Below, piece after piece: positions 2,462 to 62,486 of a stretch of DNA of 64,000 nt. The first letter of the stretch is position 1, and each line of letters opens with the position of its first letter. This stretch comes from Coleofasciculus chthonoplastes F2-STO-03 (GTDB lineage: Bacteria; Cyanobacteriota; Cyanobacteriia; Cyanobacteriales; Coleofasciculaceae). The notes below the pieces were generated by a model. That model was not told the DNA's origin and made no database searches. It saw nothing but the letters and a program-made list of their open reading frames with translations. The translations under genes were made by a program, and so were the position numbers. The DNA is taken from the NCBI GenBank assembly GCA_040222015.1, contig JAVJWO010000176.1, forward strand, positions 1-64,000. Direction: 5' to 3'.

Positions 2462-5400
2462 TTACTGTTTTACATCATCACACAAAGCCTGATCACTCTC
2501 TGGAGCATTGTATTTTAGATAATCCTCCACCCAATCACAGGCTCTATGCATGAGTACATCTAGCGTTAAATCCTCTAAATTCCACAACCTGACTGTTTTA
2601 TCAGAACTAGCAGAAGCAACCGTCTTTCCATCTGGGCTGAACACTACGCTCCTGACCCCATCTTCATGACCAGAAAGAATGTGGAGAAGTTCACCTTGTT
2701 GATTCCATAACCTGACGGTTTTATCCTCACTAGCAGAAGCAATCGTCTTTCCATCTGGGCTGAACACTACCCTATAGACCCCATCTTCATGACCAGAAAG
2801 AGTGTGGAGAAGTTCACCTTGTTGATTCCAAAACCTGAGTGTTCCATCCTTACCAGCAGAAGCAATCGTGTTTCCATCTGGGCTGAACACTACGCTGATG
2901 ACCCAATCTTCATGACCAGAAAGAGTCTGGAGAAGTTCACCTTGTTGATTCCACAACCTGAGTGTTCCATCGAAACTAGCAGAAGCAATCGTGTTTCCAT
3001 CTGGGCTGAACACTGCGCTGGTGACTGGTGCTTCATGACCAGAAAGGGTATGGAGAAGTTTACCGTCTCGATTCCACAACCTAACTGTTTTATCCCCACT
3101 AGCAGAAGCAATTGTCTTTCCATCTGGGCTGAACACTACGCTCCTGACCCAATTTTCATGACCAGAAAGAATGTGGAGAAGTTCACCGTCTCGATTCCAC
3201 AACCTGAGTGTTCCATCATCACTAGCAGAAGCAATCGTGTTTCCATCTGGGCTGAACACTACGCTCCAGACTAAATCTTCATGACCAGAAAGAATGTGGA
3301 GAAGTTCACCTTGTTGATTCCACAACCTGACGGTTTTATCCTCACTAGCAGAAGCAATCGTCTTTCCATCTGGGCTGAACACTACCCTATAGACCCCTTT
3401 TTCATGACCAGAAAGAATGTGGAGAAGTTCACCTTGTTGATTCCATAACCTGACGGTTTTATCCTCACTAGCAGAAGCAATTGTCTTTCCATCTGGGCTG
3501 AACACTGCGCTATTGACCCCTTCTTCATGACCAGAAAGAATGTGGAGAAGTTCACCTTGTTGATTCCACAACCTGACGGTTTTATCCTCACTAGCAGAAG
3601 CAATTGTCTTTCCATCTGGGCTGAACACTACACTCCAGACCCAATTTTCATGACCAGAAAGAGTGTGGAGAAGTTCACCTTGTTGATTCCACAACCTGAG
3701 TGTTCCATCCTTACTAGCAGAAGCAATCGTGTTTCCATCTGGGCTGAACACTACGCTATAGACCGATTCTTCATGACCAGAAAAACTGTGGAGAAGCTCA
3801 CCGTCTCGATTCCACAACCTGAGTGTTCAATCATCACTAGCAGAAGCAATCGTTTTTCCATCTGGGCTGAACACTACGCTGATGACCCAATCTTCATGAC
3901 CAGAAAGCGTGTGGAGAAGTTCACCGTCTCGATTCCACAACTTGAGTTTTCCATCCAAACTAGCAGAAGCAATCGTGTTTCCATCTGGGCTGAACACTAC
4001 GCTGATGACCCAATCTTCATGACCAGAAAGGGTATGGAGAAGTTTACCGTCTCGATTCCACAACCTGAGTGTTCCATCCTTACTAGCAGAAGCAATCGTG
4101 TTTCCATCTGGGCTGAACACTACGCTATAGACTTCATCTTCATGACCAGAAAGAGTATGGAGAAGTTCACCGTCTCGATTCCACAACCTGACGGTTTTAT
4201 CCTCACTAGCAGAAGCAATCGTCTTTCCATCTGGGCTGAACACTATACTAATGACCCCTTCTTCATGACCAATTAGTCGATTCCGCTCTCTAAATCTGTC
4301 GTCATAAATTGCCGTCTGCAAGGTTTGATAAATTCGTCTCTCACTCTCCAATTTTTCTGAATTTGATTCTTTGAATAGCGCTCCTGCCCGAATCCCTTCA
4401 ATCAGAGCATCGAATTTCAGATTTGATTTAACCAGTATCTGGGAAAAGCGGCTTAACGCATCAATTTGACCTGCCATCCTTTGTTCGGATTCCCGCCACT
4501 GGACTACAGCCAAGCTGGTTAAACCCATCAACCCAATCAAGGCAGTAACCGATACAACGATAATGCGGCGAGCTTGTTTAAGTTCTCGTTGACGGCGACT
4601 TTCTTCTTGACGCAAATAAGCCTCTTTTGCCGCTAGACTTGCCTGAATTAATGCGTTTTGCAAGTCGGTGGCTGAAGGCTTTTTCTGGCTTTGATTTGTT
4701 TCCTGTAACCAGTCTTGTGCAATGGCTAATTCATTTCCCCGTAACAACAAATCATCACTTTTATCCTGCTGCTGCCATTCCAACGCCCGCTGTGACCATT
4801 TGCTATGCAGGTGAACGTGTTCTCTATCCGTATCTAAAGCCCTGACCAATTGATTGAAATTGGCATTAAACTCCCGTTGATTCTGATTGAAGTCAATCCA
4901 CTGAATCTTAGCTAACTCTGGATGTAAATTTGCCGAGTCTACGGGCTGATGTAATACGGTGATAAAACGCTTATTTAAGCTCGCTGCATAGTCCACCTCA
5001 GCAGCACAGTACGGTGAATTAACCGAACGCGGTGAAAGAATAAACAAAAAGTTATCACAGGCTTTAATCCCTGCCTGAATTTCCTGCTGGAAGTCACTCC
5101 CCGATGCAATACTTTCCTGGTCAAACCACGTCGTTTTTCCTTGCATCTGTAAGGCATCATTTAGCTTTCTCGCTAAGTCTGAGTCCGCACGAGAGTAAGA
5201 GATAAACACATCCAGCGACTCTAACGGTGGTTGTCGCAGGCTTTCAGTAATGTATTCTTCCTGTAAGGCAGTGGGTGGATGGTGTGTCCGTTTTTGTGCG
5301 ACTTTTAACCACGCTTCAGCACTGCGTAAGTTATAGCCTCGTAGCAGAATACTGGGATTTTGGTATTGCTCTTTCCACTTGAGCGCTTTAGTCAGTAAAA

Positions 5401-6526
5401 TCTTATGTTCTCGATAATAAGCCTCATCCTGATGCAGAATCCGTAATAACTGACTTTCATCAAGGTGATAATCCTCTTCCTTTACATTATCGGTGAGGTC
5501 AATATATTGTAATCCCTGTAGCACGGGTGGGATTTGTTCCACGGGTGTTTCCCGTACCAATACCGGAATAATTCGCTTGTGTAGTGACACCGCCAAGTCT
5601 AATTCTTGTTGACAGTATTTCGAGCCTATGGAATCCGGTGAAATCAGATACACCAAATTATCCGCCTGTTCAATCCCCCGTTTAATCGCCTCCTCAAAGG
5701 ATTCTCCGGTTTTGATATCGGTGGTATTTGTCCACACGGTAATACTTTCTCGCCTTAAACTGCGACGAATCTTTTCCATCGTCGCCTTATCCTCGTCGCT
5801 ATAGGCAATAATCACCTGAGTCATCAAGTTATTGGCATTCTTGATACTTTCGGTGATGTATTCGCAATGTAAGTCAGTGGGAAGACAAGGCGGTTGTTCA
5901 TCTTTAAACCGTATCTTTAACCAAGCTTCTGCCTGTTGTCTCTCTTCGCCAACTAATAACCAACTATGTTGCTTTTGATTTCTCTCCCACTCCAAGGCTT
6001 TAACTAACAAGTCAGTGTGCTGTTGTACATAGTCTGTATGAGAACGAAGTAGCTTAACCAAGTCAGTTAAGGATGCGTCAAAATCGTTTATCTCCTCCTG
6101 AAAATACACCCAGTTGAGTTTACGGATTGTTGGGTGCATATTCTGATAGCTTTCGTGCAATCCTTTTTCTTTATAGGCTTGCCACTCTGACTCTGTACTA
6201 TTAGGATTACGCTGCTGCCAGGTTTCCTGGCTAATGTCCATAACGTGTAATATAGGAATAATCCGTTTATTCAGCTTTACCGCCAGTTCAATTTCTTTTA
6301 GGCAATAGGGAGAGTTGACGGAATGAGGCGCAATGATAAATAGAAAATAACTGGCTTTTTCGATACCATCATCAATTTGATTCTGGAAGTCTACAGCTAG
6401 GGGAATATCATTGAAGTCAAACCAGACGTTAAACCCTTGTTGAGTGAGACGCGCTTGCAGGTTTTGAGCGAAGGCTTTACTATCGGCTCGTCCGTAAGAG
6501 ATAAAGGCATCAAATAATGTTGTCAT
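2462..6526 (-). pseudogene. Triple-TIR, transmembrane, 14x WD40 protein interrupted by one in-frame TGA at 3827-3829
   Basis: ORFs 3827..6526 and 2462..3817 are in the same frame; three FISY/IIAY-type TIR starts with SxYC..E motifs; hydrophobic helix near 4497-4565; WD40 array. Confidence 0.85.
2579..4270 (-). repeat. Intragenic tandem array of 14 near-identical 123-bp WD40 units
   Basis: GH codons recur at exact 123-bp spacing from 4270 to 2671. Confidence 0.95.
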
Positions 6527-7313: not shown

Positions 7314-8267
7314 ATGGATATTGTTGCGGTTATTGAAAAGGGCGGAATCGCCATGTGGCCCCTGTTAGGGCTTTCGATCCTAGCAGTTGGTACAATTTTT
7401 GAACGCCTCTGGTTTTGGGCGGGAATCCTATTGAAACAACAGGAAATTGTCAATCGGGTGCTGGATGCAGCCGCTCAAAATTGGCAGGTGGCTAGAGAAA
7501 TCGCGCTTAAATCACGGCGACAACCCGTCGGACGATATTTATATGCTCCCCTACGCCTGATCAGCCCCGAACCGGAATTGTTCCGCTTGGCTTTAGAGGG
7601 GGCGGCTGATGACGAGTTAGCAGCGATGCGACGCGGCGATAAGCTATTAGAAGCGGTGATTGCCCTGTCTCCGCTGTTGGGGTTACTGGGAACGGTACTG
7701 GGTTTAATCAACTCCTTAGGCTCAATTACTATTGATCAACTGGGTACAGCCTCCACCGCTGGGGTAACGTTGGGGATCGGTGAAGCGCTGATTAGTACAG
7801 CGACAGGACTAATTATTGCGATTACCAGTTTGGCATTTTATCGACTGTTTCAAGGCTTTTGGTTTAACCAAGTCAAAATATTCCGTAAAGCGGGGACAGA
7901 GTTGGAATTACTGTATCGCCAAGATTGGTTACAAGCCGAGGATAGTGATCAAATGATGAATGATCACCTCCAAGACAATACGGTTAACGTTTACCAAGAG
8001 AGTTTTGAGGTTCCCAAACGCGATCGCACTCCACCCCCAAAACCTCGATCCCAGCAGAAGCCGGACGATCTCACTCCTGTCGCCAATGCTAAAGGAAACC
8101 AAGACGATAAAGTTTCCCCAGACAATTCTCAAGTCCCCCAAACCGATCGCACTCCTGTCGCCAATGCTAAAAAAAACCAAGATGATAAAGTTTCCCCAGA
8201 CAATTCTCAAGTCCCCCAAACCGATCGCACTCCTGTCCCCAACCCTCAAGGAAAGCCGGAAAATTAG
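7314..8267 (+). CDS. exbB: MotA/TolQ/ExbB proton channel protein with low-complexity C-terminal tail
   Basis: [32 protein letters not shown] motifs. Confidence 0.9.
8072..8238 (+). repeat. 78-bp intragenic tandem repeat (about 2.1 copies)
   Basis: TPVANAK(G/K)[18 protein letters not shown] duplicated. Confidence 0.9.
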
Positions 8268-49473: not shown

Positions 49474-49520
49474 AAAAAAATATAATTCCCCCTCTAACAA
49501 ACTTACTATAAATTGTGATC

Positions 49521-52500
49521 ATGAACACCCCAGATCCCCTAGCCGAAATTGCCGCCTGTAACGATCAGGCATTAAACACCCTAACCCGATCGCTTACTAA
49601 ATCCCAGGGAGAGTTTACCTTAATTCTGGCGCGGTGTAACTATACCTGTTTGCGATCGCAGATTCTCCACCTGCTACACCAACGCTGTTCCCTCAACCTA
49701 TTTGAGTTAACCCTAGACTCATCGGCGCAGACGATATATACCGCGATTCACAATCATGTAGAGAATCAACAACCTGATGCTATATTAGTCACCGGGTTAG
49801 AATCAGTAACGGATCTCGATAACTTACTCATCGCCACCAATCGAGTACGGGATTTATTTCGCAAGTTTCCCTTTCCCGTCGTCTTTTGGGTAACTAATCA
49901 GGTATGCAAACGGCTGATCAAAGTTGCCATGGATCTCTACAATTGGTCGAGTCCCAAGCTAGAATTTGTCCTACCTGAACCTGCACTAATGGCATTAGTG
50001 GCAGAAACAGCGCACCAAGCCTTGGCAGATGAGGACAACTTAACCTTAGATGATACCGAATTACAAGCCATTCTGCAATCATACTCTGCTCAAGGACAAA
50101 ATTTTCCCCCTGATTTTCATGCTATTTTATGCTTAAGTTTGGGAATCATTCACACCCGAAACAATCACATCGATGCAGCGATTCCTTACTATCAGCAAAG
50201 TTTAACCCTTTGGCAAGAACATCAGTCCGGAGAACAGATGGGAATTACGTCACTGCATCTGGCTTGGGCGTATGCACTGAAAGGGGAGCAATATCAAGCA
50301 GAAATTCGGGACTATGTGCAGCAAACTTGGCAGCATTTGCATCAGGAACACTGCACTGATTCCTTGATTCATCATAGTTGTAAACTAGGAGATTTACTGC
50401 GACAGGTTGGTGACTGGGAAAAATTACAACAATTAGCGGAAAAAGCATTAACTTGGCATCAGCAGCAGGGGGATGTCCAGAAAATTGCCCAAGATTATGG
50501 GTTTTTAGCCGATGTTGCTTTAAATAAACGTCAATGGCGGGATGCTCAAAAGTTCGCGCAGCAAGGGATTAAGGCTTGGCAACAGGTATCAGAGTTTGAG
50601 ATTAAACGGTTAGGATTGTGTTATTTTATTCTGGCACAATCCCAGCAACACTTGGGTCAAGAAAAAGACGCGATCGCGACATTGGCGACAGCGAGAGAGA
50701 TTAGCTTAAATGCAACCATTCCCCTACATCAGTATGACCCGAAACTTTATGTTAATATCCTGCAAAACTTACGCACTCTAAAATTTGCCCAAGGGGATTA
50801 TTTAGACGCCTTTCATTTAAAGTTAGAACAACGGCAAATTGAGACCCAATATGGCTTACGGGCATTTATTGGTGCGGGACGACTGCACCCGCCACGACAG
50901 GTAATTCAGCCCGGTATTCGAGGAAGACAGGGATTATCCTTATCCCAAATCGTCGCTTCCTCTGGACGCCAGAAGGATGTCGAGGAACTATTAGAACGAA
51001 TTCGACGACGCGATCGCAAATTGACGGTGATTTATGGGTCATCTGGGGTAGGAAAGAGTTCGATTTTGCAGGCGGGATTAGTTCCGATTCTGCAACAGAC
51101 TTATTTTGAAGGACGGGATATTGTCCCTGTTTTGCTACAAGTTTATAAGGATTGGGTAGGGGGTTTAGATAAGGGTTTAGTGGAAGCCTTGAAGAAGGTT
51201 AATCGTTCTTCTATTTTTGCTAATGATTCCCTTGAGACTCAATCTGATCCCCCCCCCGCCCCCCTTAAAAAGGGGGGAGCTAAGAGAGGCTCTAACATTG
51301 ATTTAATTGGGGATAATAAAAGAAGTTCTGACTCCCCCCTTCCCTTGCAGGGAAGGGGGGCTGGGGGGGTTAGGTCAACCCTATCAATGATTCTCAACCA
51401 ATTGCGTCAAAATGAACACAGCCAACTGTTAACCGTGCTAATTTTTGACCAATTTGAGGAGTTTTTCTTTGATCACAAAGATCCAGCCAGCCGACGAGAG
51501 TTTTATGAGTTTCTGCGTCAATGTGTAGAGATTCCGTATGTCAAAGTTATTTTATCTCTGCGGGAAGACTATATTTATTACCTATTAGAGTTAAATCGCA
51601 CAACGCCGTTAACCAACATTGATAAAAATCACGAGCATATTCTCTATTACTTAGGGAATTTTTCAGCAGCAGATGCTAAAGCCGTCATTCAGAGTTTAAC
51701 CGCGCGATCGCATTTACCTTTTGAGCCAGATTTAGTTGACCAATTGGTGCAGGATTTAGCCAAGGATTTAGGAGAAGTGCGTCCGATTGAGTTGCAGATT
51801 GTTGGCTATCAACTGGAAACGGAGAAGATGACCACGCGGGAGGAGTATCAAAAATATGAGTCTAAGGAGGAATTAGTTGAGGCGTTTTTAGCCGATGTTG
51901 TTCAAGATTGTGGATCAGGAAATGAGCAGGTTGCCAAACTCGTCTTGTACTTGCTAACTGATGAGAATAACACTCGCCCCCTAAAAACTCGTGCGGATTT
52001 GGAATTGGAGTTAGAGGTAAAGAATGAAACGCTAGATTTAGTTTTAGAGGTGTTAGTCGAATCAGGGATAGTCTTGAGAGTTCCGGCTATTCCAGATGAC
52101 CGCTATCAACTGGTTCACGATTATCTCGTATTATTTGTGCGTCATCAACAATCTGAGCGATTAATTAAGGAACTAGAAAAAGAGAGAGAACAACGGAAGC
52201 TGACAGAAGCCAAGCTGAACCAAGTTCTGAGACAACAACTTGAAGACACTCGCCGTTCATTAGTGTGGAAAGTTGGACTCGGCGTTCTGAGTGGGGCGTT
52301 AGCAATATTCTTGCCATTTGTGTTACTGAATCAGAATGATAGTTATCTCAATTCTCGGATTACTGAAGCGAAAAGGAAACTTAGCTCAAACCAAGATTTA
52401 GAGGCGCTAGTTGAAACCTTAAAGGCTGGAAAACGGTTGCAACGTTGGTCAATTGGCGTCAATCCTGAGACTGAAATTAAAGTAAAAGCAGCATTACAGG

Positions 52501-55500
52501 ATGTGGTTTACAGTATCAGAGAAGTGAATAGTTTTCACGGACATAGCGGTACAGTAACTTGTGTTTCTTTTAGTTCGGATGGTCAGTTAATTGCATCGGG
52601 TAGTGAGGATACAACGATTAGAATTTGGACTGTGGAGGGTAGGAAAGTTGCCACATTTAAAGGACATGAGGATACGATTACCAGTATTGACTTTAGCCCA
52701 GACGGAAAATGGATTGTTTCTGGAAGTAAAGACAATACCCTGAAACTATGGCGTATTGAGGGCAAAGAACGTCAAGCAGTTGCTACGTTTACAGGACACA
52801 ATAAACCCGTTACCAGTGTAAGCTTTAGCCCCAATAGTCAGCTAATTGTATCGGGGAGTGAAGACAAAACTGTAAAACTCTGGAAGCTTGATGGCCAAGA
52901 AGTTGACACGTTCAAGCATGATAAAAAGGTTAATAGCGTCAGTTTCAGTCCAAATGGTCAGCTAATTGCCTCTGCTAGTGATGACGAAACGGTAAAGCTT
53001 TGGAGTCAGGATGGTAAATTAATTAAAACCTTAAATCATGGTTCTTCTGTTAATCAAGTAGTTTTTAGTCCGGATAGTCAAATTATTATATCTCAGTTAG
53101 ATCAATCCCTATTCTCATGGCGACAAGACGGTTTCTTGATAAAAAAATATAATTACAATTACTTTGGGGAAATATCGGATTCTAATCAGAAAATATTTGC
53201 ATTCTCTGATCCATTTTATTCAAACACAAAATACGTAACACTACTTCCATTTTTTAACGAAAAGAAAGCAAAATTTAGATTAATAAAAGGTCATAAAAAT
53301 AAAGTTAGTAGTATTGACTTGAGTCCAGATGCAAAAATGCTAGTTTCTGGAAGTGAAGATAACACAGTAAAATTATGGGATGTAGAAAAATCTAGTTTTG
53401 AAACTCCCAGACATATTGATTTGAGTGGTACGGCAACTCATATAAATTTTAGTTTAAATTCTAATCTATTTGCCTCCACTACTACACTTTATACCCGATA
53501 TGGGTTCAGCAAAATCAAAAATAAAAATACTGAACTAGAATTATGGAGTTTAGATGGCAAACTCTTACAAAGCTTTCCAGGAGAAAACTCAACAGTAAGT
53601 TTTAGCCCCAGCAGTCCGATTTTGGCTGCTGCCAGTAGCAATAAAGTTTTACAAATTTGGAGCGAAACTGGTAAAATATTTACCCTTAAAGGAACCAATA
53701 TTGATGAAACAATTAGTTTAGGTGCTAATGACATAGCGCTAACAAATAATAATCATACACAACTGTCAAACAAAGATGATCAATCAAAAATATTTCTCAA
53801 GGGGCATGAAGATCAGATATATCTGATCGATTTCAGTGCTGATGGAAAGACTATTGCCACAGCAAGTAAAGATAACACTGTTAAAATTTGGCAACGGAAT
53901 GGCAAGTTAATTAAAACTTTGAAAGGTTACAAAGATAGAATTAATAACATCAGTTTAAGCTCAAATGGTGAGACATTGGTTATTCATGATAGCGATAACA
54001 ATGTAAAATTCTTGCAAAGAGATGGAACAATTATTAAGACAGTTCAAGGATATGGTCTTCTTAATGTTAGGTTCAGCCCTGATGGTCAGACTCTGGCGAT
54101 TTTGGATAACCCTCTACCTCTATATATTTACACTAATAACACATTGACAACTTGGAAAATCGACGGCACTAAAATTGCCACGTTTAAAGTCAATGGCTGG
54201 ATTAAAGATTTTAGCTCGGATGGCAAGACAATAGTTACTGAAGATGACAACAGTAAGCAATTCTGGGATCTAAACGGTACTTTGCTCAATACCTTTGACA
54301 AAAAAACAAAAGGCTACAGTCATGATTACCGAATATTGTTGACGGTCAAAGATGATAAAATATTACAACTTTGGCAGCGTGATGGAAGTAAACTTGCTAC
54401 TATTAAAGTTCAGGCTGAGTCACTGTACAACGACATATATAGTGACTTTTTAGTTAGGTATCGTTTCAGTCCAGACAGTAAAAAGATCGCCCTGCTAACT
54501 AGCCAAAACACAGTGGAACTCTGGAAAACCGATGGCACTTTTATAAAAAGTATCCCATTTCAGATTGATCGATTCGCTAACGAAAATCAACCTGAACGCA
54601 TACCCATGAATTTTAGTCCCAATAGCCAAACCTTTGCCATTCGCAGTGATGACAACACTGTGCAACTTTGGAGTGTTCAAGGTAAATTGAAGCAGACTAT
54701 TCAGGGACAGGGAGATGCGATTACCGATCTAAGCTTTCTGCCAAACAGCGAAACTCTTGCCATTACGGGAATTGATGATACAGTGAAACTCTGGAAAACT
54801 GACGGCACATTGCTGAAAAGTCTTCAAGAACCAAGAAATCAGGTGAACCGCGTCAGTCATAGTCCCGACGGTAAACTGATTGCGGCTGCTAGCGATGACA
54901 AAACTGTTAAAATCTGGAACCGGGAAGGCAAATTAATTAGAACGCTTAAAGAACATACCGATCATGTTAATGATGTGAGTTTCAGCCCCGACGGTAAACT
55001 GATTGCCTCAGCCAGCGATGATAAAACCGTCAAAATTTGGCAGCTTGATGGTACATTAATTAAAACCTTCGATGAACATGGCAATAGCGTCAATCGGGTA
55101 ACATTCAGTCCTGATGGACAGTTTATTGCTTCTGCGAGTGATGACAAAACCGTTAAACTCTGGAGTCTGAATGACAAAACAACTCTCTCATTCTCTCATG
55201 ACTATCCAGTGACCAGTGTCAACTTTAGACCCGATGGTCAACTGATTGCTTCAGCGAGTACAGAAAACGTAAAACTCTGGAGTTTGGATGGTAAACTACT
55301 GACAACCTTTGAGCGGATAGGCAGTCATGACGTGAGTTTCAGCCCTGATGGTCAACTGATTGCGGCTGGCGGTGATAATAACATTTCCGTATGGGATTCT
55401 GATTTGGATAAATTGCTAGAACGGGGATGTAATTGGGCGCGGAATTATCTCAAGCATAATCCCAAGGTGAAAGAACGCGATCGCACTCTCTGTGATGATA

Positions 55501-55517
55501 TTGGTACTCAAGAGTAA
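49521..55517 (+). CDS. Degenerate-NTPase/TPR/STAND NTPase/TM/WD40 protein
   Basis: GSSGVGKSS, IFDQFEEFF, YQLVHDYL, hydrophobic helix near 52257-52328, many WD40 repeats. Confidence 0.88.
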   Translation: MNTPDPLAEIAACNDQALNTLTRSLTKSQGEFTLILARCNYTCLRSQILHLLHQRCSLNLFELTLDSSAQTIYTAIHNHVENQQPDAILVTGLESVTDLDNLLIATNRVRDLFRKFPFPVVFWVTNQVCKRLIKVAMDLYNWSSPKLEFVLPEPALMALVAETAHQALADEDNLTLDDTELQAILQSYSAQGQNFPPDFHAILCLSLGIIHTRNNHIDAAIPYYQQSLTLWQEHQSGEQMGITSLHLAWAYALKGEQYQAEIRDYVQQTWQHLHQEHCTDSLIHHSCKLGDLLRQVGDWEKLQQLAEKALTWHQQQGDVQKIAQDYGFLADVALNKRQWRDAQKFAQQGIKAWQQVSEFEIKRLGLCYFILAQSQQHLGQEKDAIATLATAREISLNATIPLHQYDPKLYVNILQNLRTLKFAQGDYLDAFHLKLEQRQIETQYGLRAFIGAGRLHPPRQVIQPGIRGRQGLSLSQIVASSGRQKDVEELLERIRRRDRKLTVIYGSSGVGKSSILQAGLVPILQQTYFEGRDIVPVLLQVYKDWVGGLDKGLVEALKKVNRSSIFANDSLETQSDPPPAPLKKGGAKRGSNIDLIGDNKRSSDSPLPLQGRGAGGVRSTLSMILNQLRQNEHSQLLTVLIFDQFEEFFFDHKDPASRREFYEFLRQCVEIPYVKVILSLREDYIYYLLELNRTTPLTNIDKNHEHILYYLGNFSAADAKAVIQSLTARSHLPFEPDLVDQLVQDLAKDLGEVRPIELQIVGYQLETEKMTTREEYQKYESKEELVEAFLADVVQDCGSGNEQVAKLVLYLLTDENNTRPLKTRADLELELEVKNETLDLVLEVLVESGIVLRVPAIPDDRYQLVHDYLVLFVRHQQSERLIKELEKEREQRKLTEAKLNQVLRQQLEDTRRSLVWKVGLGVLSGALAIFLPFVLLNQNDSYLNSRITEAKRKLSSNQDLEALVETLKAGKRLQRWSIGVNPETEIKVKAALQDVVYSIREVNSFHGHSGTVTCVSFSSDGQLIASGSEDTTIRIWTVEGRKVATFKGHEDTITSIDFSPDGKWIVSGSKDNTLKLWRIEGKERQAVATFTGHNKPVTSVSFSPNSQLIVSGSEDKTVKLWKLDGQEVDTFKHDKKVNSVSFSPNGQLIASASDDETVKLWSQDGKLIKTLNHGSSVNQVVFSPDSQIIISQLDQSLFSWRQDGFLIKKYNYNYFGEISDSNQKIFAFSDPFYSNTKYVTLLPFFNEKKAKFRLIKGHKNKVSSIDLSPDAKMLVSGSEDNTVKLWDVEKSSFETPRHIDLSGTATHINFSLNSNLFASTTTLYTRYGFSKIKNKNTELELWSLDGKLLQSFPGENSTVSFSPSSPILAAASSNKVLQIWSETGKIFTLKGTNIDETISLGANDIALTNNNHTQLSNKDDQSKIFLKGHEDQIYLIDFSADGKTIATASKDNTVKIWQRNGKLIKTLKGYKDRINNISLSSNGETLVIHDSDNNVKFLQRDGTIIKTVQGYGLLNVRFSPDGQTLAILDNPLPLYIYTNNTLTTWKIDGTKIATFKVNGWIKDFSSDGKTIVTEDDNSKQFWDLNGTLLNTFDKKTKGYSHDYRILLTVKDDKILQLWQRDGSKLATIKVQAESLYNDIYSDFLVRYRFSPDSKKIALLTSQNTVELWKTDGTFIKSIPFQIDRFANENQPERIPMNFSPNSQTFAIRSDDNTVQLWSVQGKLKQTIQGQGDAITDLSFLPNSETLAITGIDDTVKLWKTDGTLLKSLQEPRNQVNRVSHSPDGKLIAAASDDKTVKIWNREGKLIRTLKEHTDHVNDVSFSPDGKLIASASDDKTVKIWQLDGTLIKTFDEHGNSVNRVTFSPDGQFIASASDDKTVKLWSLNDKTTLSFSHDYPVTSVNFRPDGQLIASASTENVKLWSLDGKLLTTFERIGSHDVSFSPDGQLIAAGGDNNISVWDSDLDKLLERGCNWARNYLKHNPKVKERDRTLCDDIGTQE

Positions 55518-58591: not shown

Positions 58592-58716
58592 GTAGGGGCG
58601 GGTTTCACTACTATTGTTTGAAATGGTGCGTTACGCTTCGCTAACGCACCCTACATACGAATGACAAATGACGAATGACAAATGACGAATGACAAATGAC
58701 AAATGACAAATGACAA
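58592..58716. repeat. REP-like hairpins and (A/G)AATGAC heptamer array
   Basis: GTAGGGGCGGG 58592, GGTGCGTTACGCTTCGCTAACGCACCCTAC 58625, about 8 heptamers 58659-58716. Confidence 0.85.
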
Positions 58717-61700
58717 ACACTTCCCTATATCAAGTCGGTGGAAGCTTGCACAAAGATGCTCCCACCTATGTTCAACGAAAAGCCGATCGCGAACTGTATC
58801 ATGCTCTAAAACAGGGTGAGTTTTGCTATGTTCTCAACTGTCGGCAAATGGGAAAATCGTCTCTATTAGTTCAAACCCACCATCGCTTGCAAGAAGAAGG
58901 ATTCCAATGTGCCACGCTTGATATGACCATGATAGGTTCGGAAACGATTACGCCTGATCAGTGGTATAAGGGATTAGTTCTGGATTTAACTCGCAAATTT
59001 AAACTGTTTAAAACGGTTAATTTAAAAAAATGGTGGCAGGAGCAAGAAGATATTTCGTTGCCTCAGCGATTTAATAAATTTATCAGCGAAATCCTTTTAA
59101 CTCAATTCCCCAACCAAAATATAATTATATTTATCGATGAAATTGATAGTATTTTAAGCTTGAATTTTCCTATTGATGACTTTTTTGCCCTAATTCGGTT
59201 TTGTTATAATCAACGTAGTCTAGAATCTGACTACAATCGCCTCACCTTTGTTATCTTTGGTGTCGCTACACCCAGCGATTTAATTGCCGACAAAAAGCGC
59301 ACGCCATTTAATATTGGCAAAGCCATAGAACTGCACGGCTTTCAACTGGACGAAGCCCAACCCTTAACCCAAGGATTCAGCCAACAATTTGCTAAACCTG
59401 AAGCCATTATTAAAGAAATATTAGCCTGGACAGGAGGACAGCCTTTTTTAACCCAAAAGCTATGTCAACTGGTGCTAGACGTGGCGCAAAATACAGTGAG
59501 AGATGATCTAAAAATTCCACCGGGTACTGAAGCCTTTTGGGTGGAATCCGTGGTACGCGATCGCATCATTCAGCATTGGGAGTCTCAGGATGAGCCAGAA
59601 CACCTCCGTACCGTCCGCGATCGCCTGTTGAGAAACGAAGCACGGGCGAGTCGATTACTGGGCATTTATCAACAAATTTTACAGGGGATTGATATTGCCA
59701 CCGATGATAGTCGTGAACAAACAGAATTACTTTTATCGGGCTTAGTCGTCAAAGAACAAGGAATATTAAAGGTAAAAAATCGCATTTATCCAGCCGTTTT
59801 TAACCTGGACTGGGTTGAAAAACAATTAAACCATCTACGCCCTTACTCTCAAGCCTTATCTGCTTGGATTACCTCCCAATTTCAGGATTCATCACGACTC
59901 TTGCGGGGACAAGCATTAAAAGATGCCCAAAACTGGTCTCAGGACAAAAGTTTAAGTGACTTAGATTATCAATTCTTAGCCGCCAGTCAAATCTGCGATC
60001 GCAATGAAGTACAACAGCAGATAGAAGCCGAACGCATCAAGGAAGTGGAAGCCCGACTAATCGCTGAACGTCAGATAGCGAAAAAGCAGCGATTACTCTT
60101 AGTAACCTTTGCGGCAATGTTAGTTATTGTCAGTGGATTGGCTGGCGCAATTCTGGTGCAAAACCGCAGGTTAGCCATTAGTGAAATTGAGGCAATTACT
60201 ACGTCTTCAGAAGCACTATTTGCCCTCGATCAACGATTAGAGGCATTAATCGCCGCCCTGCGAGCCAAACAGAAAGTACAAGCCTTAGGTCGAGTGGATA
60301 CCCAGACCAAAAATTCGGTTGAAACAGTGCTACGAAAGGCAGTGTATGGTGTCAGAGAACATAACCGCCTCTCTGGTCATCACCAGCAAGTCCATGATGT
60401 AACATTTAGTCCTGATGGTTTAATAATTGCTTCAGCAGGTGACGATAAAACGATTAAGCTTTGGCAACCTGATGGAACGTTATTAACTACATTTCAAGCA
60501 CACAGCGATACAATCAAAAGCGTAACCTTTAGCCCAGATAGTCAACTCATTGCTTCGGCGAGTCAGGATAAAACCGTAAAACTATGGCGGAGTGATGGCA
60601 CATTAGTTGCTACACTGAATGGGCATAATGCTCAAGTAAATAGTGTCACCTTTAGTCCGAATGGTCAGATGTTGGTGTCTGGGAGTGATGATCAGACAAT
60701 CAGACTTTGGACAATTGATCAGACTTGCATGAATTTAGCAGACAAGGTAGATGAGGGAGATAGGGGAGATGAGGGCGGGTTTAGTAACATTAGGGTGACA
60801 ACAAATGATCAGCTTGAAACCCGCCCCTACACAAAATTTAAAATCATGCCATCGAGGGTTGCAAAGGGTCAAAACCATTCCCTCGAACGAATTGAAGGAG
60901 CGCCCAATCCCCAAGAATGCTTTATTTCTAGAATTATCAAAGGGCATCGCGGAGAAGTTCGCAGTGTAGTCTTTAGTCCTGATGGTCAATACTTTGCCTC
61001 TGCCAGTTGGGATGATACTATCAAACTTTGGACACCTCAGGGTATGTTACTGAAAACTCTCAAAGGTCATGATGCTGGCGTGAATTATGTAACCATTAGT
61101 ACCAATGGTCAACTTGTGGCTTCAAGTTCGATAGATGGAACCGTCAAACTCTGGCAACCTGATGGAATATTACGGAGAACGTTAACCGGACATACGGATG
61201 GAGTTTTTGGTTTAGCATTTAGTTCCGATAGTCAAACCCTTGCTTCTGTAAGTTGGGATCAAACCGTTAGACTTTGGCAAACAGATGGAACCGAACTCAC
61301 TGTTTTGAAAGGGCATAAAAATGGACTCTGGGCGGTGGCATTTAGCCCCGATGGTCAAATGTTGGCGTCTGCGAGTTTGGATGGCACCATTAAACTTTGG
61401 ACGCCGGAAAAAACTTTGTTAACCTTTCTCCAAGGACATCAGGATGCAGTTTGGGGTGTTGATTTTAGTCCGGATAGTCAAACTCTGGTTTCTGGGAGTT
61501 GGGATGGTGCGATAAAACTTTGGCGACGTGATGGTCAGGTGTTGGCGTCTTTTGATGGGCATGATGAAGCCGTGTTCGATGTTGCTGTTGCTCCCAAAAT
61601 GAATGCGAATTCCCCCTCTAAAAATGATAGGGTTAAGAAGAAAGGAAAGAATCAAGGCAATAGCGAAACCGTTAAATCACTGCTAATCAATGAGTTAATG

Positions 61701-62486
61701 ATTGCCTCAGCCAGTGAAGATAAAACGATAAAACTTTGGCAGGGTGATGGGAGTTTATTGAAAACATTACGGGGACATAGCAGCGCGGTTTTTAGTGTCG
61801 CTTTTAGCCAAAATGGTCAGTTACTTGCCTCTGGAAGTGGTGATAAAACTGTCAAACTTTGGACACGAGATGGTAAATTGCAGAAAACTTTAACTGGACA
61901 TAATGGAGGGGTTTTCAGTGTAGCATTTAGTCCAGATGGTCAGTTGATTGCCTCTGGAGGTGAAGATAAAACGATTAAACTTTGGACAAGGGAGGGCACA
62001 TTGTTGAAAACCTTAACCGGACATGGTGATAGTATTCTTGGTTTAGCCTTTAGTCCCGATAGTCAACGCCTTGCCTCTGCCAGTTGGGATAATACGATAA
62101 AACTTTGGACAAGGGAGGGCATCTTACTCGCCACTCTAGAGGGGCATCGCGATCGCGTCAACGATATTGCATTTAGTCCCGATGGGCAACTTCTGGCGTC
62201 TGCGGGTTTAGATAAGACGGTTAAGCTGTGGCGCAATGACGGTACACTGCTAGTCACGTTAGAAGCCCATCGCGATCGCGTCTACGATATCACCTTTAGT
62301 CCCGATGGTCGCACCCTTGCCTCTGCTAGTGTAGACAAAAGCGTAATTTTGTGGGATTTAGAGCGAGTTGTTAATCTTGATCAGGTTTGGGCGTTTGGTT
62401 GTGATTGGGTACAGGACTATCTGCGGACAAATGTCAACGTTAAGGAACAGGACAAAAAAGTTTGTGACAACGTTAGTAACCCTTAA
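58710..62486 (+). CDS. AAA_35-like NTPase/TM/WD40 protein with two in-frame insertions
   Basis: [34 protein letters not shown] near 60092-60158, WD40 repeats. Confidence 0.9.

Follow-up and report, generated by a model that had tools for sequence, protein, structure and literature searches.

Predicted membrane receptors with three TIR modules and a hypervariable WD40 array in a filamentous cyanobacterium: a probable nonsense allele and the association of its family with an LSDAT/SLATT cassette

The window analysed, 64,000 nucleotides from the filamentous cyanobacterium Coleofasciculus chthonoplastes F2-STO-03 (contig JAVJWO010000176.1), carries one gene of a receptor family whose intact alleles consist of three TIR and helical modules, a single hydrophobic helix and a WD40 array (Table 1). 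The gene is flanked by exbB/exbD, DUF1232, cupin and DUF4058 genes, and its site is stable across the genus. Neither a gene of the LSDAT/SLATT/patatin cassette described below nor a known defence gene was found adjoining the locus, and a scan for promoters and terminators gave no signals above those of shuffled sequence.

Table 1. Features of the receptor gene (window positions; aa, amino acids of the frame).
Feature	Position	Strand	Basis or remark
Whole reading frame	2462..6526	(-)	1354 codons + stop, one in-frame interruption
TIR module 1, aa 4-162, with insert; Glu78 at 6295-6293	6041..6517	(-)	Pfam TIR_2
Helical module H1, three helices	5831..6040	(-)	structure model
TIR module 2, aa 236-364; Glu308 at 5605-5603	5435..5821	(-)	Pfam TIR_2
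Helical module H2	5225..5434	(-)	structure model + profile
TIR module 3, aa 438-563; Glu510 at 4999-4997	4838..5215	(-)	Pfam TIR_2
Helical module H3, then a long helix with a basic patch at its end	4565..4837	(-)	structure model
Predicted single transmembrane helix, aa 655-673, N-terminus inside	4508..4564	(-)	hydrophobicity, charge bias, CHASE2 paralog
Three-helix stalk after the membrane span, aa 674-749	4280..4507	(-)	structure models
Array of 14 WD40 units, 123 bp each	2579..4279	(-)	unit spacing, best PDB match 2YMU
In-frame TGA in WD40 unit 4	3827..3829	(-)	sole stop among units examined from 8 loci
C-terminal helical tail with Cys1330 and Cys1349	2465..2578	(-)	Cys pair conservation

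The initial annotation had read the frame as one protein, which was not borne out: the TGA at codon 900 (position 28 of its WD40 unit) leaves an ORF of 899 aa and a separate frame of 451 aa. At this position the sister units carry GGA (6 units) or AAA (7 units) as against TGA in unit 4. The stop is known from the assembled sequence, the assembly read comprising 219 contigs. None of the public sequencing runs compared by shared words reached half (best share 0.39), and of four runs compared with the locus, all of them contigs of relatives, X1 was without cover at 3770-3916, the region of the stop. Judged from its sequence, the window copy is probably an inactive nonsense allele. It is a poor choice for experiments because of the in-frame stop; intact natural alleles are P0010, P0125, L095 and L001.

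The three TIR modules, each said to keep a glutamate, were recovered as three TIR_2 matches with the motifs at aa 72-78, 302-308 and 504-510. The glutamate is present in 50 of 53 homolog rows in module 1 (3 gaps), in 52 of 53 in module 2 (1 gap) and in 50 of 53 in module 3 (Gln in the other 3), and the modules retain the catalytic-position residue of Thoeris-type signalling. Module 1 aligns with bacterial TIR structures, including the Glu motif, and module 3 gave matches to the SARM1 TIR; sequence matches of the TIR part extended to the AbTir and Cat1 TIRs. The first strand of module 2 is slightly degenerate in the window allele. For the helical modules, no convincing match was returned by Pfam, and the ESM Atlas yielded unnamed clusters only, plus a weak nSTAND1 lead at 0.80; the fold search of the N-terminal part gave nothing but TIR matches. 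A profile of H1 found 7 ORFs in the same genome, and the H3 region weakly resembles (profile E about 0.4, with a visible motif) the stretch that links NTPase and membrane helix in AAA_35-WD40 proteins. The motif search detected no Walker A motif in the protein, the 25 Pfam families listed (of 41) include no NTPase, and aa 1-654 of the structure model are wholly occupied by TIR and helical modules, with no central STAND NTPase.

The one hydrophobic helix noted previously was recovered with a Kyte-Doolittle 19-mer mean of 2.26, hydrophobicity never rising above 1.22 in the rest of the N-terminal part. By an alignment-anchored count it is present in 51 of 53 homologs, in 48 of which (48/51) more K/R residues stand before than after it. 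Confidence of the structure model was low at aa 659-673, and the model was counted neither way. A paralog in the same genome carries the same three TIR modules and the helix, followed by CHASE2; this fusion occurs in 24 of the 120 homologs listed, and Cache-type ectodomains are also joined to the same cytoplasmic module. CHASE2 is an extracellular domain accompanied by TM helices (PMC8195603, in part). The cysteines of the tail, invariant in 22 of 22 aligned ectodomains and present as a pair in 40 of 45 long homologs, are likely to form a disulfide. Charge bias, this terminal pair and the CHASE2 paralog together indicate that the helix probably spans the membrane, with the propeller outside.

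The exact 41-aa (123-bp) period of the 14 units was confirmed, as were the variable residues after GHE and in S-x-D and the two-state blocks, whose states (K-V or G-L, RD or QQ) occur in all four combinations among units 1-13. The description of the unit DNA as almost invariant was somewhat overstated: the internal units do have a mean identity of 0.88, but only 21 of 41 codons are invariant among the 12 internal units. Of the pairwise differences, 41% lie in codons 7, 8, 10 and 26 (4 of 41 codons) and 39% in the two-state blocks, the hypervariable positions being 8, 10 and 26, and also 7 and 28. Under a sequence rule for binding positions (R1-2, R1 and D-1; PMC3419727, in part), codons 8, 10 and 26 correspond to these top-face positions, which agrees with the expectation that the variable sites lie on one face of the propeller and suggests a top-face concentration of HNWD type. 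Their pN was 0.57 versus a background pS of 0.09. For the hot codons the ratio of pN to background pS was 5.8-9.4 and the local pN/pS 1.1-1.25, both by a counting method without tree or recombination model; the first and last units of arrays and units with a codon deletion were excluded from the pN/pS and neighbour tests. Four-gamete violations were found in 12 of 27 site pairs. The best PDB match of the array was the WRAP structure 2YMU (E 1.5e-266), and a model of the intact allele L095 (mean pLDDT 90) reached a TM score of 0.99 to a 7-bladed WRAP design. On sequence and model the array belongs to the highly repetitive, WRAP-like WD40 proteins with 7-bladed propellers.

Arrays are not invariant among strains. 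The P0010 allele is identical to the window allele in module 1 (0/232 differences), and only 2 of 13 hot-spot triples are common to both; a run of four P0010 units matches P0142, an allele with 24/232 differences in module 1. The long alleles contain 13, 14, 16, 16 and 16 units of differing content, one of the 16-unit alleles (P0125) being intact on a 7.78-Mb contig; short alleles (1-7 units) are possible assembly collapses. The arrays of close alleles differ wholly, and unit runs are common to separate lineages, a polymorphism of length and order as in HNWD genes. In total, 91 blades gave 71 distinct hot-spot triples. Positional orthology of units between genomes was found for the last unit only. 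Homogenisation is not simply a within-genome process, because unit identity is similar between and within genomes (0.883 vs 0.879) and unit runs cross lineages. High internal identity was seen in only 11 of the 43 family arrays examined, and these 11 independent arrays repeat the pattern with differing unit sequences.

Across 151 cyanobacterial genomes the TIR family was found in 37, all of which (37/37) carry a TRPM-like SLOG (LSDAT) gene, and in none of 106 LSDAT-negative genomes; the control family AAA_35 was present in 55 LSDAT-negative genomes. At a cut-off of E<=1e-40 no member of the TIR family was seen in 8 of 45 LSDAT-positive genomes; one fragmented genome of the genus (G008) gave no LSDAT match. 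P values for the co-occurrence are overstated because the genomes are related. In 10 of the 37 genomes, and at 10 of 65 loci, LSDAT and a family gene are no more than 8 kb apart; any cassette gene lies nearby at 17 of 65 loci. Co-oriented operons with the cassette were found at L030, L111, L112, L113 and L114; relatives of the window gene sit in such LSDAT/SLATT/patatin operons, and a signal-binding effector in the same operon, as in Thoeris, is found in these relatives and not at the window locus. The cassette of the window's own genome lies on a separate contig (C47), unlinked to the window gene. The LSDAT sequence matches the N-termini of TRPM2/TRPM8, several SLATT partners carry a fused lysozyme/GH19 or peptidase domain, and the patatin partner matches PADLOC phospholipase effectors; the three cassette proteins of the own genome gave 0 matches to PADLOC models. 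The link of the TIR family to LSDAT is new here. It points away from the earlier view of the TIRs as stand-alone NADases and towards a signal for the SLOG/SLATT/patatin cassette.

The reading preferred here, to which a probability of about 0.6 is assigned, is that of a STAND-less, Thoeris-like membrane receptor with its hypervariable WD40 array outside and a TIR-made messenger acting on the LSDAT/SLATT cassette; this genomic evidence suggests a signalling receptor rather than an NAD-depleting toxin. Intact alleles would hold three TIR and helical modules in the cytoplasm and, outside, a WRAP-type double beta-propeller closed by the disulfide-bonded tail. Point mutations would build up at three top-face binding positions per blade, and unit recombination, within the array and between lineages, would reshuffle and resize the array; it is proposed that each strain therefore presents a different binding face. 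The claim of a membrane-spanning receptor with a recombination-reshuffled face is supported in this sense by topology signals, variable-codon positions and allele comparison, the window copy itself being broken by its stop and perhaps caught at one point of rapid gene birth and death. A bound ligand would bring the receptors together and switch on the TIRs, whose action on NAD+ would yield a messenger of ADP-ribose type. That messenger would be sensed by LSDAT, the TRPM-related SLOG protein, and by its SLATT partners in the membrane; in other genera a patatin lipase or DrHyd/TPR-S proteins would take part as well. The outcome may be damage to the membrane or an arrest of growth, and the cassette on C47 may serve several receptors in trans. 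We infer a role in non-self or anti-phage recognition; ligand, messenger, effector action and a role in defence are guessed by analogy.

The pathway need not be immune, because ectodomains of the CHASE2 and Cache types belong to the usual sensors of environmental conditions. TIR-LSDAT signalling might instead serve kin recognition or another non-immune purpose, with a regulatory, non-lethal role in reporting contact at the surface, the identity of filaments or bundles, or the state of the envelope. This is unlikely, albeit consistent with the exchange of ectodomains on one cytoplasmic module, the fixed chromosomal position beside housekeeping genes, the lysozyme/GH19 or peptidase fusions of several SLATT partners and the recognition of conspecific alleles by the fungal HET-E analogues (PMC12222747, in part); the partner domains are of phage-defence effector types (patatin resembling the PADLOC phospholipase, TIR with SLATT being type VII Thoeris), and the fast loss and disruption of alleles fits conflict. 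A rather improbable alternative is that clustering by ligand makes the three TIRs deplete NAD+ directly, without second messenger, for which three catalytic-Glu TIRs in one chain, the AbTir, SARM1 and Cat1 matches and the missing effector gene at the window locus can be cited; it leaves both the 37/37 co-occurrence and the operon linkage with LSDAT, SLATT and patatin unexplained.

Variation at binding positions defined a priori, the intact P0125 allele and the recurrence of the pattern in 11 independent arrays all speak against unselected decay of a recently amplified propeller, with unit order, number and stop partly produced by short-read assembly. Such an origin is very unlikely, even though the assembly is in 219 contigs, Illumina assemblies fail on such arrays (PMC12222747, in part), repetitive propellers are often disrupted (PMC9218822, in part) and unit 4 has more private bases (3) than any other. 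An assembly artefact is possible only for the stop and the 1-7-unit alleles. The rewriting of variable codons by a diversity-generating retroelement or other templated mutagenesis is hardly credible: variation is limited to few codons and the rest of the genome contains three ORFs bearing an RT-like motif, but array 18-mers occur 0 times elsewhere in it, codons 8, 10 and 26 vary at each of their three positions, where 3-4 bases occur, and 43 of the 44 codons observed there are one step from another. The array was rejected as a target of such an element, the template repeat not being found and the variation not being adenine-specific.

Hypervariable WD40 arrays as such are already known (WRAP, HET-E). 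In highly repetitive cyanobacterial WD40 proteins the hot-spot positions vary, in-frame stops and frameshifts are frequent and immunity has been proposed (PMC9218822, PMC5587647 and PMC6805158, each in part). WRAP of Nostoc punctiforme (Npun_R6612, PDB 2YMU), the best match in sequence and fold, shares the 41-aa blade type and 14 blades with the receptor; WRAP is joined to a STAND ATPase, with a TIR on a neighbouring STAND protein, whereas the receptor has no NTPase and three TIRs in the same chain, its blades are far more diversified and its family is tied to LSDAT/SLATT/patatin. HET-D/HET-E share high internal conservation, length polymorphism and null alleles with stops, and the HNWD positions reported under selection (10, 11, 12, 14, 30, 32 and 39; PMC12222747, in part) would correspond, with an inferred offset of 4, to unit positions 6, 7, 8, 10, 26, 28 and 35, six of which vary here. 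HNWD proteins are cytoplasmic HET-NACHT-WD40 NLRs of fungi; the receptor, by contrast, is bacterial, lacks NACHT and has a predicted membrane helix and TIR effectors. Thoeris type I has a SLOG-bearing effector, type III several TIRs with a SLOG effector and type VII a TIR with SLATT and cADPR; the terms WD40, propeller, LSDAT, TRPM, patatin and DUF4231 do not appear in the main text of that survey, which left out stand-alone TIRs (bioRxiv 10.64898/2025.12.03.692087, in part). Catalytic TIRs and separate SLOG- and SLATT-domain genes are common to Thoeris and the receptor family, matches of ThsB/ThcB4 models to the receptor being weak and below cut-off; the receptor family differs in that sensing would fall to a large membrane protein whose ectodomain is hypervariable, its SLOG belongs to a stand-alone TRPM-related LSDAT clade and its cassette is often unlinked.

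Toll-like receptors have an LRR ectodomain N-terminal to the membrane helix and a C-terminal TIR. The label Toll-like given previously holds as an analogy only: a single pass, a repeat ectodomain, a membrane helix and cytoplasmic TIRs would be shared, whereas the receptor has no LRRs and the opposite orientation, with WD40 C-terminal and TIRs N-terminal, tripled and with the catalytic Glu kept; no evidence of homology past the TIR fold was seen. Burroughs et al. in 2015 reportedly predicted a TIR-SLOG(LSDAT)-SLATT-TPR-S nucleotide conflict network, with the same partner domains as the receptor family; the Pfam names LSDAT_prok, SLATT and TPR-S presumably go back to this work and its successors. 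In the openly accessible papers and preprint main texts searched, neither a TIR-TM-WD40 receptor without STAND nor a connection of one with LSDAT was described.

To our knowledge, it is in the cytoplasm that bacterial defences of the TIR and NLR-like kinds detect invaders. If correct, sensing outside the membrane by a recombination-diversified face coupled to a TIR messenger would widen the picture of bacterial defence and give the hypervariable WD40 arrays of cyanobacteria a testable function, immunity having been proposed in the literature examined without an output pathway. The close association with LSDAT offers a specific protein downstream, through which messenger, effector and the TRPM2 link become directly testable. 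More tentatively, filamentous cyanobacteria might possess a network for surface immunity of a Toll-like kind, in which STAND-less membrane TIR receptors form a library across the genome. The ectodomains of these receptors (hypervariable WD40, CHASE2, Cache, FGS) would be interchangeable, their binding-face blades would be swapped between species like an antibody repertoire, and their ADPR-type messenger would converge on one TRPM-related SLOG hub and SLATT pores. Such a network, if real, would couple extracellular non-self sensing to bacterial TIR signalling and would be, in functional terms, a bacterial forerunner of the ADPR-gated TRPM2 module.

On the minus strand, the frame 6526-2462 encodes three copies of the TIR_2 domain, behind each of which lies a three-helix (H) module of ~70 aa. 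A long helix comes next, then a single hydrophobic segment (aa 655-673, hydropathy 2.26), a stalk of helices, an array of 14 WD40 units with a period of exactly 123 bp, and a tail of 38 aa. Its nearest named relatives are Coleofasciculus records (91-92% identity). The unit residues listed in the initial annotation were correct on re-reading of the array; the uninterrupted protein assigned there to 2462-6526 overlooked a TGA stop in frame at 3829-3827; it occupies codon 28 of unit 4, which reads GGA in six of the other units and AAA in seven. As it stands in the source assembly (219 contigs), the gene yields a product of 899 aa that stops within the fourth blade, and a separate frame of 451 aa with no export signal. 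No public sequencing run contains the source DNA, and in the closest run the stop is left uncovered. Three bases are private to unit 4, more than in any other internal unit, which fits either decay or error. The receptor allele in the window is, as assembled, probably null.

In the 12 internal units 21 of the 41 codons never vary, and the pairwise differences are concentrated in codons 7, 8, 10 and 26 (41%) and in two-state blocks (39%). Positions 8, 10 and 26 show six amino acids each in the window array and 9, 10 and 12, respectively, in 43 internal units of four arrays. The rule of Wu et al. for deriving WD40 top-face positions from bulge and tetrad (PMC3419727) was applied with V9-x10-S11-V12 as bulge and H5/S23/D27/W33 as tetrad; positions 8, 10 and 26 are thereby predicted to be the top-face binding positions R1-2, R1 and D-1, in agreement with the proposed single variable face. 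By a counting method, pN at the three codons is 0.57 versus a background pS of 0.09, but pS within them, inflated by path averaging over multi-base differences, is 0.52 and the local ratio no more than 1.1. Of 27 framework-site pairs, 12 violate the four-gamete test, which indicates recombination. The best PDB match of the array is 2YMU (WRAP propeller); the structure predicted for L095, an intact allele of 16 units (mean pLDDT 90, one low-confidence blade), superposes on 7-bladed WRAP designs with TM 0.96-0.99.

The rest of the genome offers no template, sharing no 18-mer with the array, the variable codons differ at all codon positions, and 43 of the 44 codons observed at positions 8, 10 and 26 lie one step from another; a diversity-generating retroelement is thus unlikely, and ordinary mutation plus selection suffices. 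A motif resembling reverse transcriptase is present in three ORFs of the same genome (C16:29974-34065 and C215:4022-6298).

After module 3, 51 of 53 homolog rows have a helix whose hydropathy reaches 1.6 or more (the other two include one misaligned partial protein), and in 48 of these 51 K/R is richer before than after it. Two tail cysteines are invariant in 22/22 ectodomains; exactly two Cys occur in 22 of 40. In the paralog on contig C30, three TIRs and the helix are followed by CHASE2, which is also found in 24 of the best 120 of 895 homologs; one of the 120 listed carries PF02743 (Cache) and one PF03781. CHASE2 is described as extracellular in PMC8195603. Charge bias, tail cysteines and CHASE2 homologs make it likely that the TIRs lie inside and the sensor outside the membrane. 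The same helix-TM-WD40-Cys chassis stands behind STAND NTPases twice in the window; in the receptor, TIR modules occupy the NTPase's place. Another WD40 array of high identity (median 0.73), second to that of the receptor, belongs to a TM protein of STAND type encoded at the end of a contig (C194:2-2701).

Features in the window and in the same genome (C, contig; L110, locus)
Feature	Position	Strand	Remark
NTPase-TM-WD40 protein	window 49515-55517	+	same terminal Cys pair, diverged blades
NTPase-TM-WD40 protein	window 58710-62486	+	AAA_35 and helical segment resembling H module; terminal Cys pair, diverged blades
Six paralogs	C18:66364-71100, C10:76021-71945, C30:70522-73464, C72:37888-43544, C195:10397-9519		TIR-helix module
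Only cassette of the genome	C47:66672-72489 (L110 4673-10490)		off the receptor's contig

Across the genus, exbB/exbD and DUF1232 flank a conserved site, at which the gene is matched in 7 of 9 genomes. Another retains a remnant (L096 3230-5113) of the last 55 codons beside a transposase-like, presumably IS-type, ORF of 495 aa. In L020 a frameshift falls in unit 1, and the N-terminal modules are missing from the reading frame. Unit numbers in 11 coded arrays, with genomic context for those taken from loci, are 14 (window), 13, 16, 16, 16, 7, 4, 2, 1, 1 and 1; the short ones may be assembly collapses, since short-read assemblies fail on arrays of this kind (PMC12222747). The 16-unit allele P0125 is intact on a 7.78-Mb contig.

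The arrays are not invariant: P0010 is identical to the window over module 1 (0/232 differences), yet shares 2/13 hot-spot triples (residues 8, 10 and 26 of a blade), and P0125 (1/232) shares 0/16; 71 distinct triples occur among 91 blades. To within one residue, P0010 units 2-5 are the same as P0142 units 3-6, P0142 differing from the window at 24/232 module 1 positions. The nearest neighbour lies in the own array for 25.2 of 43 units, above chance (shuffled mean 10.9); mean unit identity is 0.879 within and 0.883 between genomes; and silent divergence between genomes is 0.013-0.097 in the unit framework versus 0.14-0.27 in the N-part (exbB/exbD, 0.17-0.33). We infer that blades are both locally duplicated and swapped between lineages; an alternative would be DNA-level selection that keeps units recombinable. 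Directly downstream of the array, DUF4058 (294-1082; 99.7% identical to L095, 0/127 four-fold sites differing) and DUF1232 (2001-2330; 99% identical to L001/L004), set against exbB/exbD (17-33% of four-fold sites differing), point to recent inter-lineage exchange. The low-complexity C-terminus of exbB holds a 78-bp tandem duplication (8066-8242, 94% match).

Seven ORFs of the genome carry the TIR-helix module, the six paralogs comprising three triple-TIR proteins (two with WD40, one with CHASE2), two tandem single-module WD40 proteins and one short single-TIR membrane protein. At least five TIR modules occur in homologs L057, P0001-P0006, P0019, P0025 and P0039, Parabeggiatoa records included, whose C-termini are of WD40, Cache or FGE-sulfatase type. 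Family genes stand two or three in tandem at L044, L045, L052, L054, L058, L018 and L025-L027; those of Microcoleus have TPR tails behind the propeller.

Among 65 family loci, 17 have at least one cassette gene nearby: LSDAT_prok (SLOG related to TRPM) adjoins 10, DUF4231/SLATT 8, patatin 8 and DrHyd/TPR-S 3, DrHyd being labelled by its motif. Of 151 genomes sampled across the class, 45 have LSDAT, nearly always as a single copy; 37 have the TIR-helix family at E<=1e-40, every one of them LSDAT-positive (0/106 LSDAT-negative genomes). The control family AAA_35 is present in 96 genomes, of which 55 lack LSDAT; for these 96 the TIR-family/LSDAT table is 34/0/7/55. Within seven mixed families the same nesting is seen (hypergeometric product 2.6e-8, overstated as kin are not independent). 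Against the association count eight LSDAT-positive genomes without the TIR-helix family at E<=1e-40 and one fragmented genus genome without an LSDAT match. Both genes lie within 8 kb in 10 of 37 genomes, with co-oriented runs such as LSDAT-patatin-receptor-SLATT (L030) and LSDAT-SLATT-SLATT-receptor (L112, L113). The C47 cassette comprises a SLATT plus TPR-S protein (1083 aa), an LSDAT SLOG protein (252 aa) and a DUF4231/SLATT-GH19 lysozyme-like protein (465 aa); the genome has no close patatin (best 38%). In L022, L051, L112 and L113 the DUF4231/SLATT partner is fused to a domain of phage-lysozyme, peptidase C39 or GH19 type, a joining of membrane effector and cell-wall enzymes.

LSDAT matches the N-termini of TRPM2 and TRPM8, and the matched TRPM2 region binds ADP-ribose. 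In Thoeris, 3'cADPR is bound by SLOG domains and SLATT effectors answer cADPR (bioRxiv 10.64898/2025.12.03.692087). Together with the co-occurrence and linkage, these make a TIR that signals to effectors in trans the preferred reading (probability roughly 0.6). The catalytic-position Glu is retained in TIR 1, 2 and 3 in 50, 52 and 50 of 53 rows; direct NAD+ depletion by the TIRs is nevertheless improbable beside the LSDAT linkage, and non-immune or kin signalling is only slightly less so.

The literature searched contained no account of a STAND-less TIR-TM-WD40 architecture or its LSDAT tie, although Burroughs 2015, Burroughs and Aravind 2020, Dunin-Horkawicz 2014 or the Thoeris preprint tables may hold one. 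Highly repetitive WD40 proteins are described as common in cyanobacteria, variable at hot spots and often disrupted (PMC5587647, PMC9218822, PMC6805158), and fungal HNWD receptors follow the same evolutionary pattern as the window array (PMC12222747). The feature is real: a hypervariable propeller of WRAP/HET-E type on a receptor that is STAND-less, probably membrane-spanning and TIR-bearing, and which genomic association assigns to a Thoeris-like LSDAT/SLATT/patatin circuit.
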